IMG/VR virus record: IMGVR_UViG_2721755660_000006
Coordinates: 1-55,157 of that record
From: a virus
Taxonomy: Duplodnaviria > Heunggongvirae > Uroviricota > Caudoviricetes
Direction: 5' to 3' (one strand)
Length of the DNA: 55,157 nucleotides
A program made the position numbers and the translations under genes. The notes under the pieces are model-generated. The model was not told the DNA's origin. It saw only the letters and a list, made by a program, of their open reading frames with translations, and did no database searches. Positions 27,479 through 45,379 of the stretch are shown in pieces; the stretch's first letter is position 1, and the number at the start of each line of letters is the position of its first letter.

Positions 27479-27562
27479 TCAATATTTATTGATGATATAT
27501 ACGCAAGCAACAAAACTTGCACAGTATGTTAATACTTCCAACCAGTCGAATAGCTCTTTCAT
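27479..27562 (-). CDS. Mini transmembrane peptide 11 of tandem array (27 aa)
   Basis: MKELFDWLEVLTYCASFVACVYIINKY; its ATG overlaps the stop of peptide 10 (ATGA). Confidence 0.5.
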   Translation of the reverse strand: MKELFDWLEVLTYCASFVACVYIINKY

Positions 27563-27702
27563 TGTTTACCCTTGAATCTCTGTTTTGATTCTCTGTAAAT
27601 AAGCCAGGTAATCATTACGATCACGTATACGCATAACATTAACGCAATAATAAGCACGCCAGAGCAAACTAAGAACATTAACAGATCTATAAACTCAAAC
27701 AT
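27559..27702 (-). CDS. Mini transmembrane peptide 10 of tandem array (47 aa)
   Basis: MFEFIDLLMFLVCSGVLIIALMLCVYVIVMITWLIYRESKQRFKGKQ; AAGAGG Shine-Dalgarno. Confidence 0.55.
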   Translation of the reverse strand: MFEFIDLLMFLVCSGVLIIALMLCVYVIVMITWLIYRESKQRFKGKQ

Positions 27703-27712
27703 GATTGCCTCT

Positions 27713-27784
27713 TTACATAATCGTAAGCGCCCAGGTAATAAGGACGATAGCTAAAACCATGTATATAAAATCTGACTCTCTCAT
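27713..27784 (-). CDS. Mini transmembrane peptide 9 (23 aa)
   Basis: MRESDFIYMVLAIVLITWALTIM; AAGGTGG Shine-Dalgarno. Confidence 0.5.
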   Translation of the reverse strand: MRESDFIYMVLAIVLITWALTIM

Positions 27785-27798
27785 ATTGTCCACCTTGT

Positions 27799-27867
27799 TT
27801 ACGTGAAGAAAACAATAACGACTAACAACGCGCTTATAGCCATGATTAAGAAATCACTGTTAGACAT
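27799..27867 (-). CDS. Mini transmembrane peptide 8 (22 aa)
   Basis: MSNSDFLIMAISALLVVIVFFT; start overlaps the stop of peptide 7; AGGGGTGA Shine-Dalgarno. Confidence 0.5.
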   Translation of the reverse strand: MSNSDFLIMAISALLVVIVFFT

Positions 27868-27934
27868 TGATAATCACCCCTACGATAATTAACGCGGCGA
27901 TACATACGAATAATACGGCTTCGATAACATCCAT
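27860..27934 (-). CDS. Mini transmembrane peptide 7 (24 aa)
   Basis: MDVIEAVLFVCIAALIIVGVIINV; AGGTGAG Shine-Dalgarno. Confidence 0.5.
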   Translation of the reverse strand: MDVIEAVLFVCIAALIIVGVIINV

Positions 27935-27942
27935 TCGCTCAC

Positions 27943-28011
27943 CTATTGAGTCAGTGCGGTCATGGTAAGAACAATCGCAACGATCAGGAAAAGGAAATCA
28001 AGCCATTTCAT
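27943..28011 (-). CDS. Mini transmembrane peptide 6 (22 aa)
   Basis: MKWLDFLFLIVAIVLTMTALTQ; ATG overlaps the stop of peptide 5 (ATGA). Confidence 0.5.
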   Translation of the reverse strand: MKWLDFLFLIVAIVLTMTALTQ

Positions 28012-28088
28012 TTTTTAATCTCCCGGTATACGTCCACGGCAATGACTGTAATAACAGCCACCAGCAATAGCATTTCATATGCGTTCAT
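28008..28088 (-). CDS. Mini transmembrane peptide 5 (26 aa)
   Basis: MNAYEMLLLVAVITVIAVDVYREIKK; AGGTGA Shine-Dalgarno; the track 61-aa ORF 28008..28193 is an upstream in-frame extension. Confidence 0.5.
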   Translation of the reverse strand: MNAYEMLLLVAVITVIAVDVYREIKK

Positions 28089-28096
28089 GCTTTCAC

Positions 28097-28171
28097 CTAT
28101 ACAACATTCTTCCACCAGAAATAGATAATGACAGCGACCAACGACCACCAGATGAGATCGTAAATATTCAT
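28097..28171 (-). CDS. Mini transmembrane peptide 4 (24 aa)
   Basis: MNIYDLIWWSLVAVIIYFWWKNVV; GAAGG Shine-Dalgarno. Confidence 0.5.
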   Translation of the reverse strand: MNIYDLIWWSLVAVIIYFWWKNVV

Positions 28172-28182
28172 GGTGAATACCT

Positions 28183-28269
28183 TCAGCTTTCAATGAATAT
28201 CATGATCGCCAGCCATACAGCGACGCAGGCAGAAAGGATAATGAGCGGGTCAATCATATTGTCACCCAT
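28183..28269 (-). CDS. Mini transmembrane peptide 3 (28 aa, or 24 aa from the internal Met)
   Basis: MGDNMIDPLIILSACVAVWLAIMIFIES; ATG directly follows the stop of peptide 2. Confidence 0.45.
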   Translation of the reverse strand: MGDNMIDPLIILSACVAVWLAIMIFIES

Positions 28270-28365
28270 CTAATATTTGCTCTTTACGGTTATCAGCACG
28301 GCGATAACAAAGCCAACCAGAAATATAGATATGCCTATTAATCCGGCGATGGTGCTGTCGTCCAT
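28270..28365 (-). CDS. Mini transmembrane peptide 2 (31 aa)
   Basis: MDDSTIAGLIGISIFLVGFVIAVLITVKSKY; TGA-TT-ATG junction with peptide 1. Confidence 0.5.
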   Translation of the reverse strand: MDDSTIAGLIGISIFLVGFVIAVLITVKSKY

Positions 28366-28367
28366 AA

Positions 28368-28451
28368 TCAACCTACGGGCCATTTTGGGGAAAACATTAC
28401 AATCGCAGTTCCAGCCGCGCCGATAAATACACCTAGCAGGAAAGTAAACAT
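28368..28451 (-). CDS. Mini transmembrane peptide 1 (27 aa)
   Basis: MFTFLLGVFIGAAGTAIVMFSPKWPVG; GGGGTGA Shine-Dalgarno; ATG two nt after the stop of the HExxH protein gene. Confidence 0.5.
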   Translation of the reverse strand: MFTFLLGVFIGAAGTAIVMFSPKWPVG

Positions 28452-28453
28452 AA

Positions 28454-28996
28454 TCACCCCCGTTTAAAGCTCATAACGCGCGGTACAAGCGCTTCTTTTG
28501 CTTTCGGCTTACGTTTGCCTTTCTTCGCGGTTTTTTCTTCTTCCTTCGGCTGTTCTGCCTGTTCTAATGCCTGCTCAACGACTTCAGCCGCCTGCATTGC
28601 TGCCACCTGTGATTCATTTGATTCTGCCAGGATGGGGAAGAAAGCATCAAAGATACGGCCCACCATGTAAGCGTAAGTCTCATTCGCCGGGTGAGTTTGA
28701 TCAGTTGTCGCTACGACGCCTACATCACTTAAAACGTGAAATGTCGTGTGAGCGCATTCATGCACCAGCGTTCCTAACTCATTGTCGAATACTGCGATCA
28801 CGTAGAAGTTACCGCCTTTCTCACCAGTGCAAGTAAGCGTCAATCCTCCTGCCAGTTCGAAATCAGGTTCTATTGGAATTCCTGCCTTCTCGCAAAATTC
28901 ATAAAACATCTCGCGGGTCGGGCAAAAGAAAACGGTTGTATGCTCAAAGAGCGGGATCTTGAATTGAGGCAACTTAATGCCTTTAGCCTTAGCCAT
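28454..28996 (-). CDS. Hypothetical protein with HExxH motif and lysine-rich C-terminal tail (possible zinc metallopeptidase-like)
   Basis: 180 aa; LVHECAHTTFHV contains HExxH; C-terminal KEEEKTAKKGKRKPKAKE; sits between the spanins and the peptide array. Confidence 0.6.
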   Translation of the reverse strand: MAKAKGIKLPQFKIPLFEHTTVFFCPTREMFYEFCEKAGIPIEPDFELAGGLTLTCTGEKGGNFYVIAVFDNELGTLVHECAHTTFHVLSDVGVVATTDQTHPANETYAYMVGRIFDAFFPILAESNESQVAAMQAAEVVEQALEQAEQPKEEEKTAKKGKRKPKAKEALVPRVMSFKRG

Positions 28997-29274: not shown

Positions 29275-29757
29275 TTATTCTTTGCGTATGCACTGCGTCT
29301 TGATGTAGTCCTGCAATCCGGTGATCTTCGCGTCTTTCTCTTTTAGTTGTTCTCTGAGGGATAGATAAGCCGATTCAGCGTCGGGAGTGAGTCTACAGGC
29401 GGCTCCATCAATGCGGCTGGCGGTTCCGGTGGCGTCTGGCACTCGCACGGGTATTGCGTTGACGTGCAACCTGATAGCACCGCTATCAATACCAGCACGC
29501 AGATCAGCAATGTCAGATCTGATAGCTTTAATCTCATCGTGATACCTCTTATCAAGTTTTGATAGTTCGGCGTTTCGCTCCTTCATCTGCTGAATAGTGT
29601 TACTTGCTGTTTTTAGTGCGCCCTGCGTAGTAGTTAGCTCGCTTTGCATTGTGTTTATCACTGACTGGCAGTGACTAAGCGCGGCAACAAGCCCAACAAC
29701 GACACAAACGATAGCGGCGATGATTAACGCCTTTATCTTGTCCACGTTTCCCCCCAT
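29275..29757 (-). CDS. i-spanin (Rz-like)
   Basis: 160 aa; N-terminal TM helix, coiled-coil body, C-terminal LQDYIKTQC resembling lambda Rz; embedded Rz1-like ORF. Confidence 0.8.
29343..29537 (-). CDS. o-spanin (Rz1-like lipoprotein) embedded in Rz in another frame
   Basis: [24 protein letters not shown] lipobox followed by proline-rich region ([12 protein letters not shown]), as in lambda Rz1. Confidence 0.75.
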   Translation of the reverse strand: MRLKLSDLTLLICVLVLIAVLSGCTSTQYPCECQTPPEPPAALMEPPVDSLPTLNRLIYPSENN

Positions 29758-30224
29758 TCACAAACGGCATATTCAACATCACGGCGGTTGATTAAACCTT
29801 GCCATTTTTGACCACCAGCATATATCCAGCGTTTAAGCTGGGCGCACGCTTCGGATTTCTTGCCGTCATTGAGTAGTTTTAACAGTGTGGATGTTTTGAA
29901 GTTGGTAGCGCCTACGTTATAGGCGAATGAATAAAGCGCAGCGCGGGTGAAATCTGATATTTCGACTTTAATATATGGGTCAATCGCTTTTGCGGTTTTG
30001 TGGAGATCCTTGTTTAACAAAGCATCGCATTCTGATTGCGTGTAAGTCTTACCAAGCATGATGTCTTTTCCGGTGTGACCATAGCAAACGGTCCATACGC
30101 CGATAACATCACGATAGGGATCGTACTCCACGCCCTCTAATGGTTTAACCATCACAGCCGCAATAGCGATCGCCCCACCAGCCGCCGCAGCAATAATCTT
30201 ATTCTTCAGCGATTGGCTAATCAT
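29733..30224 (-). CDS. SAR endolysin (phage lysozyme, P21 R-like)
   Basis: N-terminal signal-arrest-release helix ([15 protein letters not shown]) and lysozyme catalytic region [23 protein letters not shown] closely resembling P21 R; start set to MISQSL. Confidence 0.9.
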
Positions 30225-30225
30225 G

Positions 30226-30426
30226 TTACTTATTCCCCATTCGCGCGTCGTGTTCCTCTTGCGCTCGCTTGTTCTCCTGTGATTTGAAGTAATAATTAAC
30301 GGCAAATGTGCCTATGGTTGATAAGATACCCACAAAGACGGCAATATCATTGATGGTTATCGCGCCGAAAAAAGCAGTTACGGCCCCAGTCACATACGCG
30401 CACGCCTCCCGTATTCTGTCGAACAT
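30226..30426 (-). CDS. Class II holin (pinholin-like)
   Basis: 66 aa with two TM segments and charged C-terminus, directly upstream of and overlapping the SAR endolysin start. Confidence 0.8.
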
Positions 30427-30729: not shown

Positions 30730-30912
30730 TTTTACGCTCCTTAATGGCTCGCCTGATTTGCTCTGCCGTAGCGTCGAAGAAAGCAATAAAAACAGTCACA
30801 GGCCAAAAAGGAATCTCAAGTCCACCAGGTTCTGCACCGCTAAACTTAATAAAACATGACATCAGGATCGCGCCAGCGATATAAAGCAAAAACAATCACA
30901 GCTATAAGGCAT

Positions 30913-31044
30913 TCAATCATCTTCACCCCCAAGATCGTGATAAATATCGTTAGGGTCTTCACCATGTTCCTCGCAAAAACGCTCAAATAGCGCCCAATTT
31001 TCAGAAAGAAACATGATTAATAAATTTTTATACCACTCTTCCAT
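30913..31044 (-). CDS. Hypothetical small acidic protein (43 aa)
   Basis: ATG directly follows the stop of the upstream gene; MEEWYKNLLIMFLSENWALFERFCEEHGEDPNDIYHDLGGEDD. Confidence 0.35.
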   Translation of the reverse strand: MEEWYKNLLIMFLSENWALFERFCEEHGEDPNDIYHDLGGEDD

Positions 31045-41616: not shown

Positions 41617-41714
41617 AAATCACCTCATATGGTATTCAATAAACCACCTGATAAACAGGCATAAGGCAATAAAACCCCAGCAGCAGCACATATAAAACAA
41701 TGTATCGTCCATAA

Positions 41715-42998: not shown

Positions 42999-43179
42999 TT
43001 AACACCTCGACGTATTGCTCAAGATGCCATTTACCAACTTCATCCATGTTTTCGTCGTATATAATGACCTCTCCGCCTTGCCTGAATCTGAAAGCAGTGG
43101 CTGTAAATTCACGGCCCCACCACGCCTTTAAGCGCTCCCCACCTTTCAGGTGTTTAACCTTTACTTCTTTTATAGCCAT
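42988..43179 (-). CDS. Hypothetical protein
   Basis: 63-aa ORF. Confidence 0.4.
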   Translation of the reverse strand: MAIKEVKVKHLKGGERLKAWWGREFTATAFRFRQGGEVIIYDENMDEVGKWHLEQYVEVLNEN

Positions 43180-43442
43180 ACGCCGAACATCCCATTCAGT
43201 CCGGCGAACAATTTCCGCCAGTGGTTTTCAACATAAGCCCGGAACGGCTTAACGCGAACATTGCGGGCCTTCAGTTCAATCTTGTCGAAGAAACGCGGCT
43301 CTATAATTGTTCCGTCCAGATATTTAACTAGGATCGGGCGCTCAAGATCGTTATATGTCTTGTTCAGCACAACCAGACCAGGGTCTTTACGGTATTCCGG
43401 GAGCACAACAAGATCACCCGTTTTGATATTCATGAATGGCAT
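43170..43442 (-). CDS. Hypothetical protein
   Basis: 90 aa from the ATG overlapping the upstream mini-gene stop (TGATG). Confidence 0.45.
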   Translation of the reverse strand: MPFMNIKTGDLVVLPEYRKDPGLVVLNKTYNDLERPILVKYLDGTIIEPRFFDKIELKARNVRVKPFRAYVENHWRKLFAGLNGMFGVWL

Positions 43443-43558
43443 CACATCACCCCGCCGATATAGCTAATAATTGCCGCAGTCGCGCCAGCTATTACCACCA
43501 TGAAGACGAAAGCGACCACACAGAAAACAGCCTTGACAGTATTTTTGTCGACTCGCAT
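43442..43558 (-). CDS. Mini membrane peptide (38 aa)
   Basis: MRVDKNTVKAVFCVVAFVFMVVIAGATAAIISYIGGVM; GAGGT Shine-Dalgarno; coupled to flanking genes. Confidence 0.45.
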   Translation of the reverse strand: MRVDKNTVKAVFCVVAFVFMVVIAGATAAIISYIGGVM

Positions 43559-43565
43559 ATAAACC

Positions 43566-43673
43566 TCACATGTCAGTAATCAGCTTAACAATCGCCACAG
43601 TGATATAGAGTGACGCACTAAGGTAAACAGCCGCCACAGCAACGGCGGCGGATAACATTGCAATCTTTTTCAT
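43566..43673 (-). CDS. Mini membrane peptide (35 aa)
   Basis: MKKIAMLSAAVAVAAVYLSASLYITVAIVKLITDM; ATG overlaps the upstream stop (ATGA). Confidence 0.45.
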   Translation of the reverse strand: MKKIAMLSAAVAVAAVYLSASLYITVAIVKLITDM

Positions 43674-43894
43674 TTGCCACCCTCCGCAATGAACTTATCA
43701 AGCCATTTGTTATTAGCCAGCCGTTCGGCATCTTCGCCGAATGATTTACGTTCGCTTAATTCCTGTCGAGTAGGGAAAGGCCATTTATCAACCCAGCCCG
43801 CAGACGTCTCGAATTCGTACAGCCCGCCGCCGAAAGTGATAAGCTCATCAGCGCCGTCAGGAATTTCTCCGTCAACTTCTTTATCTTCGATCAT
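43670..43894 (-). CDS. Hypothetical protein
   Basis: 74-aa ORF. Confidence 0.45.
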   Translation of the reverse strand: MIEDKEVDGEIPDGADELITFGGGLYEFETSAGWVDKWPFPTRQELSERKSFGEDAERLANNKWLDKFIAEGGK

Positions 43895-43908
43895 GATTTA
43901 ATACCTCA

Positions 43909-44193
43909 TTAATCGTTAATAACCTGACCCATACGCCCGCGATATTTGCGCATACGTGGATCGACATATTCAGGCCAATGCATATCATCAGCTTTCTGTA
44001 GTGGGTAAAAACTTGCCTGCCAGTTGTCGAACCATATTTGCTTTGCGTACAGGTCACTAAATCTTTTCGCCATTCGATCCGCTGCCGTGCCGCATAAAAA
44101 AAGCCCGCGATCGATTTGATCACGGGCTTCTCTTAAAACTTGCTCTTTTGTTCGCGGCGGCGGCGGTGCTTTTAAATAATCACCCATCGCCAA
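43909..44193 (-). CDS. Hypothetical protein
   Basis: 94-aa ORF directly downstream of ssb. Confidence 0.45.
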   Translation of the reverse strand: MAMGDYLKAPPPPRTKEQVLREARDQIDRGLFLCGTAADRMAKRFSDLYAKQIWFDNWQASFYPLQKADDMHWPEYVDPRMRKYRGRMGQVIND

Positions 44194-44202
44194 CCTATTG
44201 AA

Positions 44203-44619: not shown

Positions 44620-45260
44620 TAACCCATCTCCCCGTTAAGCTCTGCTACCCGGATGTCATAAACATCTTTTGCCTTGATTCGATGCTCCGATCCTTCCGGT
44701 AGTAATTTCCAGCATTTGCCAAATATTTCACGCAGCTTGTTAGCGTCCTGCGCTTTCGCTGCTGCATCACAGAAACGTGCTAATACTTCATCAGGATTTG
44801 GCGGCGCTTTATTCTGCTGCGGTTGTTGTTTTGGTGGGTTTTTCTGTTGTCGCGGCTGCTGGCCTGTCTGCTTCGCGTAAGCATCAGTATCAGGATCGCG
44901 AGCATCATCTATACAGAATAAACCGTTCAAAGCATATTTACGCGCGTAACTTGATGTTGCTCCTGTTAGCTGGCTGGCGTCCATACCCTTCTTGCTTTCT
45001 TCCTCCCTGGCATAAGCAGTTACCGCTATTACGTCTTCACCGTCGCTTAGCGTCGCCGTTGCTTTCACATAATAGCGATTGCCGATCAGGACAATTTCAT
45101 CACTAACAGTCAGCGTGATATTTTGAAGCAGTGGTTTAACCGCCTCTAAAATATCCTCCGCCGACCTGTAATTATATCCACCAAAATTATTACGCTGATT
45201 TTTCGGCGCGTTCAGCGTTTGCTGAATCGTCCATAGCTTTTTATGTAACTCTGTTTTCAC
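44619..45260 (-). CDS. erf: ERF-family single-strand annealing protein
   Basis: 213 aa; NFGGYNYRSAEDILEAVKPLL signature and Gln/Pro-rich C-terminal region; probable GTG start. Confidence 0.8.
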   Translation of the reverse strand: MKTELHKKLWTIQQTLNAPKNQRNNFGGYNYRSAEDILEAVKPLLQNITLTVSDEIVLIGNRYYVKATATLSDGEDVIAVTAYAREEESKKGMDASQLTGATSSYARKYALNGLFCIDDARDPDTDAYAKQTGQQPRQQKNPPKQQPQQNKAPPNPDEVLARFCDAAAKAQDANKLREIFGKCWKLLPEGSEHRIKAKDVYDIRVAELNGEMG

Positions 45261-45379
45261 TATTTAATCTCCCGTGCTGTTAACACTATGTATAAGGCTT
45301 TATTCGCGGCGCTCCACATTTCGGCATCGTGAAGCATTTCCGCTACTGCCAGTTTGAATTGAAGCGCCTGAATAACCAT
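45260..45379 (-). CDS. Hypothetical mini-protein (39 aa) upstream of erf
   Basis: MVIQALQFKLAVAEMLHDAEMWSAANKALYIVLTAREIK; its stop overlaps the erf GTG start. Confidence 0.35.
   Translation of the reverse strand: MVIQALQFKLAVAEMLHDAEMWSAANKALYIVLTAREIK

Follow-up and report, generated by a model that had tools for sequence, protein, structure and literature searches.

Gene organisation of the locus

Two mini-genes, here called A and B, lie one behind the other on the minus strand of the 55,157-nt stretch of viral DNA analysed (hereafter the window), filling the 232-nt gap between a gene coding for a 74-aa protein and another coding for a 90-aa protein (Table 1). The initial annotation had described them, with no strand given, as two mini-ORFs of 35 and 38 codons encoding single hydrophobic helices, located in the early region and wedged between larger genes by ATGA and TGATG stop/start overlaps, with GAGGT ribosome-binding sites. 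Both ORFs and both overlaps were confirmed, the latter base by base, as was the position in the early region, downstream of genes for an N-like gp17, a Kil-like ORF, erf, ssb and abc2. The ribosome-binding site is literally GAGGT for B, whereas A has GGAGGG.

Table 1 Features of the A/B region and other features of the window mentioned in the text
Feature	Position	Strand	Description
Mini-gene A	43566..43673	minus	35 codons + stop; MKKIAMLSAAVAVAAVYLSASLYITVAIVKLITDM; from the ORF listing
Mini-gene B	43442..43558	minus	38 codons + stop; MRVDKNTVKAVFCVVAFVFMVVIAGATAAIISYIGGVM; from the ORF listing
ATGA overlap	43670..43673	minus	stop of the 74-aa gene (43672-43670) with ATG of A (43673-43671); checked base by base
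TGATG overlap	43440..43444	minus	stop of B (43444-43442) with ATG of the 90-aa gene (43442-43440); checked base by base
Shine-Dalgarno of A	43681..43685	minus	GGAGG, 7 nt before the ATG, in the 3' end of the 74-aa gene
Shine-Dalgarno of B	43564..43567	minus	GAGG, 5 nt before the ATG, overlapping the TGA stop of A (TGAGG)
Upstream coupled gene	43670..43894	minus	74 aa, acidic, soluble, weakly DUF2737-like (E=0.098, below cutoff); phrog_28542
Downstream coupled gene	43170..43442	minus	90 aa, orphan, conserved hydrophobic C-terminal tail WRKLFAGLNGMFGVWL
Hairpin inside A	43620..43649	minus	GC-rich hairpin GCCGCCGTTGCTGTGGCGGC (43649-43630) and weak T-rich tail; positional match to mEp021 TERM_2
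Hairpin inside abc2	44094..44128	minus	intrinsic-terminator-like, with U7; dG -30.3 kcal/mol, z -6.6
Kil-like ORF	45260-45379		39 aa; same early operon as A/B
Array of tiny ORFs	~27479-28457	minus	22-47 codons, one hydrophobic helix each, closely packed; ORF level
Holin	30226-30426		lysis cassette, other operon
Endolysin	29733-30305		lysis cassette, other operon
Rz	29275-29757		lysis cassette, other operon

The ATGA and TGATG overlaps are predicted to couple translation of the 74-aa gene to that of A, and translation of B to that of the 90-aa gene, in a coupled chain that comprises the 74-aa gene, A, B, the 90-aa gene, a 63-aa gene and a 110-aa gene. The same 1-nt overlap of B with the 90-aa gene appears in the annotation of Escherichia phage MagusPhagus. 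The motif GCGGAGG at the Shine-Dalgarno of A is kept, with few exceptions, in the 19 loci compared, and the spacer separating A from B, 7 nt in the window, varies from 2 to 9 nt in relatives.

The window phage is a temperate coliphage of the mEpimmI group. The 2.1 kb surrounding the two mini-genes are 99.9% identical to MagusPhagus and 83-88% identical to the Mexican coliphages mEp010, 013, 021, 044, 515 and 554. This group consists of Nus-dependent, non-lambdoid temperate siphophages for which a new family has been proposed (PMC11893012). On the coding strand the gene order is gp17 (N-like antiterminator), the 39-aa Kil-like ORF, erf, ssb, abc2, the 74-aa gene, A, B, the 90-aa gene and then genes of 63, 110 and 206 aa. 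The early operon of the group is read via Gp17-mediated antitermination, as published (PMC11893012). The abc2 gene contains, some 420 nt before A and in the same orientation, a very stable hairpin followed by a U-tract that corresponds to a terminator predicted by ARNold in the records of mEp010, 013, 044 and 554. Transcripts reaching A and B must therefore read through it, and from this arrangement both genes are expected to be delayed-early and dependent on antitermination. Their products should thus be made after infection or induction and be absent from the repressed lysogen. Promoter-like sites from which A and B might be transcribed independently were about as frequent as in shuffled sequence (3 found, 2.4 expected).

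As to the neighbours, the relatives of the 74-aa gene were found in the mEpimmI group only, and one homolog has been named 'DUF2737 family protein' by PGAP. For the 90-aa gene the genome-contig scan gave no relative and the IMG/VR scan returned members of the group only. The label 'toxin-antitoxin system toxin subunit' given by PGAP to the 90-aa protein is unsupported, with no family match, and its AlphaFold2 model (pLDDT 43) was too poor to interpret.

Conservation and coding character

We compared 57 loci, namely the window, 7 phage records, 12 E. coli prophages (taken from 34 genomes with a match) and 37 full-length IMG/VR contigs, a 38th contig being a fragment that was left out. A and B are both intact in all of them; in two cases the ORFs seemed absent owing to single amino-acid substitutions that broke the search pattern. 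All the indels are in frame, giving lengths of 35, 37 or 39 aa for A and 38-40 aa for B, and none of the other frames of the two strands stays free of stops in all the genomes. When the 232 nt were shuffled 20,000 times with dinucleotides preserved, 6 of the shuffles produced two ORFs in tandem on the same strand, each with 35 codons or more, but the conservation is far stronger evidence than these shuffle figures that A and B are genes.

The substitution pattern is that of protein-coding sequence. Among 17 distinct nucleotide versions, from 19 GenBank and RefSeq loci, the minimum numbers of substitutions at the three codon positions were 28/18/61 for A (chi-square p=7e-7) and 26/22/47 for B (p=0.003). 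Pairwise dN/dS was mostly ~0.2 for both genes, with synonymous sites near saturation in the comparison of the window type with the other types (pS 0.70-0.86). The relatives all belong to one closely related phage group, and shared ancestry explains part of the conservation, but the codon-position bias and the dN/dS values argue against it as the whole explanation.

The prophage of STEC308 provides a further indication. A gene coding for a 237-aa KilA-N protein has been inserted exactly in the spacer between A and B, and both have been retained. The newcomer uses the original ribosome-binding site of B, while B sits behind a new one. Their survival around this insertion indicates that A and B behave as discrete gene units at a mosaic boundary. 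Taken together, A and B are almost certainly two separate, real genes. Frameshift or deletion variants of A or B that read into the next gene were found in 3 of ~142 protein clusters (P0071, P0141 and P0142). The existence of such damaged variants, however rare, suggests that the two genes are probably not essential, and they may be dispensable.

In each of the loci A and B are found along with the 90-aa gene. The window type of A is always found with the window type of B and with one type of 90-aa gene, while the type of the 74-aa gene upstream varies. The most divergent type of A pairs with the most divergent type of B in 9 of 9 loci in spite of three different types of upstream gene, and the other subtypes of A and B reassort freely. 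The strict pairing may be taken as a weak hint of co-adaptation, most of which would be explained by linkage over 7 nt.

Distribution and annotation

Neither peptide matched any family in Pfam, PHROGs, NCBIfam, PADLOC, the PDB or Rfam. At the permissive threshold of E<=1, the Pfam-A scan yielded 0 families for A and 0 for B, and NCBIfam likewise 0. The sole PDB match, PsbI (E=0.27), was judged to be due to chance. A word-indexed search of 5.8 billion proteins retrieved 71 clusters for each of the two peptides, all of them belonging to their own family and coming from E. coli or from phage contigs of ~54 kb. Sizes were essentially always 35-40 aa; the 71 clusters of A were essentially all of 35-39 aa, apart from a pair of shorter variants and a frameshift form of 49 aa. 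An exhaustive HMMER search with a profile of B over 1.84 billion representatives also found only its own family (3 representatives). Comparison of the peptides with the phage collection by tblastn hit MagusPhagus only, in a search whose sensitivity was curtailed by the low-complexity filter. A and B are thus orphan families confined to the mEpimmI phage group.

Annotation of the two genes is uneven. Records based on PHANOTATE (MagusPhagus and five mEp phages) carry both as 'hypothetical protein', whereas the mEp021 reference record lacks them and has a 'TERM_2' placed inside A. PGAP left A unannotated in every RefSeq prophage inspected, with a gap of 237 nt left empty; the exception is UMNK88, in which B alone was annotated. 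The paper describing the mEpimmI group and its supplements make no mention of the peptides (PMC11893012). Both merit annotation as small membrane proteins in this group of coliphages and prophages, which is prevalent in the gut.

Properties of the predicted peptides

Both peptides share a very simple architecture, with 5-6 N-terminal residues that include 1-2 Lys/Arg, 26-28 uncharged hydrophobic residues and a tail of 3-6 residues. A is essentially one transmembrane helix between a short N-terminus that is basic (MKK) and a tail, KLITDM, at the C-terminal end, and in B the N-terminus MRVDKN is followed by a hydrophobic helix of ~28 residues. The single hydrophobic helices of the initial annotation are borne out by Kyte-Doolittle values of 2.2-3.0 over 19 residues; the best windows of this length had means of 2.2-2.5 in A and 2.8-3.0 in B, the peptides of the window phage scoring 2.19 and 2.76, respectively. 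AlphaFold2 modelled B as one continuous helix from residue 5 to 37 (pLDDT 89.8, from an alignment of 39 sequences). A and B are thus very probably membrane helices. By hhalign the two were not recognisable as paralogs of each other (probability 1%).

No charged residue is found inside the helix of A or inside that of B, and nearly all the replacements exchange one hydrophobic residue for another. The alignment columns have a mean identity of 76-81%. In A, Y17, S21, Y23 and T25 are invariant or nearly so, and F12, C13, F17, F19, G25, A28 and A29 of B are invariant. Conservation of this kind, including polar and small residues (Y, S and T in A; C, G and A in B), exceeds the needs of a generic membrane anchor, and by far those of hydrophobicity alone. 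A conserved helical face that could act as interaction surface was considered and rejected, the 100-degree periodicity of conservation being non-significant in both peptides (p=0.49 and 0.22).

The initial annotation had also tied the pair to an 11-gene array of tiny membrane peptides located elsewhere in the window, as signs of one heavy investment. Many tiny hydrophobic ORFs do exist there at the ORF level, but the link turned out to be thematic only. No sequence relationship was seen between A and B and the array peptides, and the N-termini are acidic in the array peptides and basic in A and B. The array belongs to another operon, between the lysis side and the gene of the small terminase subunit, while A and B are in the early operon. 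Furthermore, the content of the array varies between relatives, whereas A and B were present in every relative examined. A and B are a conserved pair distinct from the array.

A proposed role at the inner membrane

The reading that we prefer, although we regard it as evenly poised between right and wrong, is that A and B are translated as delayed-early micro-proteins of the inner membrane that act on a larger membrane protein. After infection or induction, RNA polymerase modified by Gp17 would read through the terminator in abc2. Ribosomes ending the 74-aa gene would then reinitiate on A, and those ending A would do so on B, so that the amounts of both peptides would be roughly linked. The products would insert into the inner membrane of E. 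coli, where small membrane proteins are known to use YidC, SecYEG and SRP (PMC12648545). As A and B have no soluble domain, any specific function would have to be exerted within the bilayer, presumably by binding a larger membrane protein of the host or of the phage. Their purpose would be host takeover or an accessory function, and they would be the phage counterparts of the small membrane proteins that regulate larger membrane targets (reviewed in PMC12648545) and not lysis proteins or pore-forming toxins.

The sequence shows the coding status, the conservation, the single hydrophobic helices, the coupling signals and the place in the operon, and from there on we infer translation in vivo, insertion in the membrane and action as modulators. 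The specific mode of action, helix-helix binding to a larger host or phage membrane protein, is the one with the best precedent, and we hold it to be slightly less likely than not. What favours a modulator over a generic helix is the high identity, with invariant polar and small residues, together with the helices being free of charged residues. Counted against a modulator is the fact that conservation lacks periodicity on one face, hence there is no interaction surface to point to.

A bolder version, which we consider rather improbable, is that A and B, maybe with the 90-aa protein and its hydrophobic tail, form a heteromeric intramembrane module that seizes or disables a specific inner-membrane machine of E. 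coli early in the cycle. A transporter, a protease or a division or defence component would be the candidate targets. The pairing of A and B types in all nine loci and the high conservation for what are bare transmembrane helices are compatible with such a module, without amounting to a demonstration. If true, this would be a phage inhibitor made of two micro-proteins, of an undescribed kind, used across the proposed mEpimmI family.

Alternative functions

Membrane damage is the first alternative to this modulator role. A and/or B could resemble type I toxins or pinholins, oligomerising and dissipating the proton-motive force for early host shutdown or lysis timing. Size and architecture (<60 aa, one transmembrane helix and very short tails) are those of type I toxins, as reviewed in PMC12648545, the same operon has the Kil-like ORF and Ipe, lethal on overexpression (PMC11893012), and many single-pass peptides are simply toxic when overexpressed. 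However, A and B matched no toxin or holin family of Pfam and no holin of PHROGs, their helices carry no charged residues, and they are coupled within a polycistronic operon, not organised as a stand-alone unit. No known antitoxin sRNA was identified either: Rfam recognised no family in the whole window at the gathering score, and at E<=1 the stretch 43000-44200 gave nothing save a chance match to Thr_leader inside abc2, which leaves room for an undescribed sRNA. In addition, a holin-endolysin-Rz cassette is already present in this phage at a distance of 13 kb (29275-30426), and the location of the pair outside it led us to reject A and B as holins or pinholins. We consider membrane damage unlikely.

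Small inner-membrane proteins for exclusion are common in phages, and A and B could block DNA entry or superinfection during lytic growth, in a role like that of Imm of T4, or inhibit a membrane-bound host defence. The pair is early by its position in the operon, predicted to be embedded in the membrane and specific to this phage group, and the mEpimmI group is known to invest in exclusion by means of its Lpp lipoproteins (PMC11893012). On the other hand, known exclusion proteins are larger or multi-spanning, and an early operon that is repressed would provide no protection to lysogens. No defence-related match was obtained, PADLOC having recognised 0 families among A, B and five of their neighbours. 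A and B were also rejected as exclusion lipoproteins of the Lpp/Cor/Llp type. Neither contains the lipobox motif [LVI][ASTVI][GAS]C (PMC11893012); A has no Cys, and in B the position -1 to the Cys is always F, I or V. Exclusion or defence inhibition is, in our opinion, quite unlikely.

A and B could instead anchor or assemble a phage protein, such as their 90-aa neighbour or the recombination/replication machinery, as p16.7 does in phi29. The close coupling of their translation to that of the 74-aa and 90-aa genes would fit this role, as would the conserved hydrophobic tail of the 90-aa protein (WRKLFAGLNGMFGVWL), the presence of A, B and the 90-aa gene together in all the loci and the strict pairing of the window types. 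Nevertheless, linkage over 7 nt predicts co-inheritance by itself, the other A and B subtypes reassort freely, and the KilA-N insertion has parted A from B with neither being lost. The model of the 90-aa protein is too poor to be of help here. We regard this anchoring role as very unlikely.

A hairpin within mini-gene A

The weakest alternative is that the A and B ORFs are untranslated and incidental, and that the region is an RNA element, the intrinsic terminator TERM_2 that the mEp021 record puts at the start of A. In the window there is indeed a GC-rich hairpin at this place, GCCGCCGTTGCTGTGGCGGC. Furthermore, the terminators t1, t2 and t5 have been demonstrated experimentally (PMC11893012), t2 being a candidate for TERM_2. 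The features of a terminator are best seen in the 'ALSIAVL' subtype, which includes mEp021 and is the only one with the hairpin followed by UUUGUCU or UUUAUCU; in it the hairpin is also somewhat more stable than in synonymous recodings (z down to -2.6).

Actually, four of the five core base pairs of the hairpin follow automatically from the codons of the Ala-Ala...Ala-Ala motif (GCNGC...GCNGC). The stability of the window type was no greater than the peptide dictates (z=+0.2 against 300 synonymous recodings). Over 30 versions the mean z of synonymous recoding was -0.81, falling below -2 in some subtypes only, and dinucleotide shuffles gave z values from -0.2 to -1.3. The tail of the window hairpin is UGUUUACCUU, a poor U-tract, that of the 'AVAVAVL' subtype is GGUAGCGG, which contains 1 T, and in several subtypes a U-tract is lacking altogether. 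A conserved terminator inside A was accordingly rejected for the window type on account of the shuffles, the synonymous recoding and the lack of conservation of the U-tract, and its hairpin probably arises as a side effect of the Ala-Ala...Ala-Ala codons. Some phages may carry a terminator within A, which would be compatible with A also being a gene. The codon-position bias and the low dN/dS span the whole of both ORFs and not merely 20 nt, and a terminator would leave B unexplained; that the pair is nothing but an RNA element is thus extremely improbable.

Comparison with known small membrane proteins

The closest functional parallel to the modulator role proposed for A and B is found in the small inner-membrane regulators of bacteria, such as AcrZ, MgtS, MgrB, PmrR, KdpF, CydX and YohP, which we take as a functional class and not as a homologous family. 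Like them, A and B have at most 50 aa, a single transmembrane helix and almost no soluble part, and are of a kind often missed by annotation. Where their action is known, these regulators bind larger membrane proteins (PMC12648545). Unlike A and B, they are encoded by the host and have their own regulation, and no sequence similarity to them was detected with Pfam and NCBIfam. A and B belong to a phage and are coupled in translation within an antiterminated early operon.

Type I toxins (Hok/Gef, Ldr, TisB, IbsC, ShoB, DinQ and ZorO) have the same size and single helix, and some of them are found in prophages (PMC12648545). A and B differ from them in that they have no HMM match and no antisense sRNA family, do not form a transcription unit of their own and are free of charged residues in the helix. 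Charge-zipper toxins such as TisB carry charged residues within the helix.

Kil of lambda and the Kil-like ORF of the window are also tiny accessory early genes in an operon antiterminated by N, beside the recombination module. The Kil protein acts on FtsZ and is soluble; A and B, by contrast, are hydrophobic throughout and share no sequence relationship with it.

A and B join a well-known kind, the small single-pass membrane proteins of phages and bacteria, which is common in phages, and they overturn no expectation. They strengthen the case that conserved micro-proteins made of a single helix are encoded by temperate phages in the operons that would serve for host takeover. Making and testing both peptides would cost little, and they could lead to a membrane target in the host.

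The A and B mini-genes and their surroundings

In the E. coli STEC308 prophage a gene coding for a KilA-N domain protein is inserted exactly between A and B, the mini-genes of 35 and 38 codons that each encode about one hydrophobic helix. The original Shine-Dalgarno (SD) sequence of B now serves the KilA-N gene, while B itself starts 11 nt past this gene and is preceded by a different SD. This insertion at the A-B spacer is a clean case of gene-boundary mosaicism.

The coupled gene directly downstream of B was restricted to the mEpimmI phage group. Its 90-aa product gave no matches in Pfam, NCBIfam or PADLOC and its AlphaFold2 model was poor (pLDDT 43); the hydrophobic C-terminal tail (WRKLFAGLNGMFGVWL) was conserved. 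The name that RefSeq gives to this gene, a toxin subunit, appears to be unsupported. Three protein database clusters (P0071, P0141 and P0142) are rare variants with a frameshift or a deletion in A or B; their reading continues to '...CCDENMGCKVW', which is encoded over the beginning of the 90-aa gene in a different frame. These variants either stem from errors in assembly or, if natural, represent loss-of-function alleles.

Positions of the features described (in the window unless another record is named)
Feature	Position	Strand	Context
90-aa gene	43170-43442	minus	downstream of B; RefSeq 'toxin-antitoxin system toxin subunit'
Intrinsic-terminator-like hairpin	44094-44128	minus	within abc2 (43909-44193), coding strand
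TERM_2	L003 3030-3046 = mEp021 MH706966 14882-14898		inside ORF A, unannotated there
237-aa KilA-N domain gene	L011 2844-3557		E. coli STEC308 prophage, NZ_CP091020; exactly in A-B spacer
39-aa Kil-like ORF	45260-45379	minus	immediately upstream of erf
30-aa hydrophobic ORF	41620-41712	minus	SD-like sequence present
39-aa hydrophobic ORF	30846-30965	minus	SD-like sequence present
~9-11 tiny ORFs, 22-47 codons	27479-28457	minus	flanked by 180-aa gene and small terminase subunit

Putative terminators

The hairpin inside abc2 (GCCCGUGAUC...GAUCGCGGGC, followed by U7) is very strong (dG -30.3 kcal/mol, z -6.6) and is annotated in the mEp records as an ARNold-predicted terminator; a simple terminator scan did not pick it up. 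A weak match to the Rfam family Thr_leader at the same place (E=0.068) is probably just the hairpin. In the mEp021 subtype, whose reference record carries TERM_2, a candidate for the terminator 't2' known from experiment, a hairpin (GCCGCA-UUGCU-UGCGGC) followed by UUUGUCU is located inside ORF A, so that a weak terminator may overlap the coding sequence of this mini-gene.

Other small ORFs

The tiny ORFs predicted next to the small terminase subunit would encode a single hydrophobic helix apiece, in most cases with an acidic N-terminus. Only 63% of this region could be aligned to mEp010, mEp554 and mEp044, and 35% to mEp021 and mEp515, indicating that it differs among relatives. Two further hydrophobic ORFs, of 30 and 39 aa, had no PHROG match, and the former was called by PHANOTATE in six relatives. 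Finally, the ORF upstream of erf resembled Lambda_Kil of Pfam (E=2e-4; 21 bits, under the 27.6 cutoff) and phrog_2055, 'Kil protein' (E=1.4e-3), and is probably the 'Kil-like protein' named in the paper on the mEpimmI group (PMC11893012).
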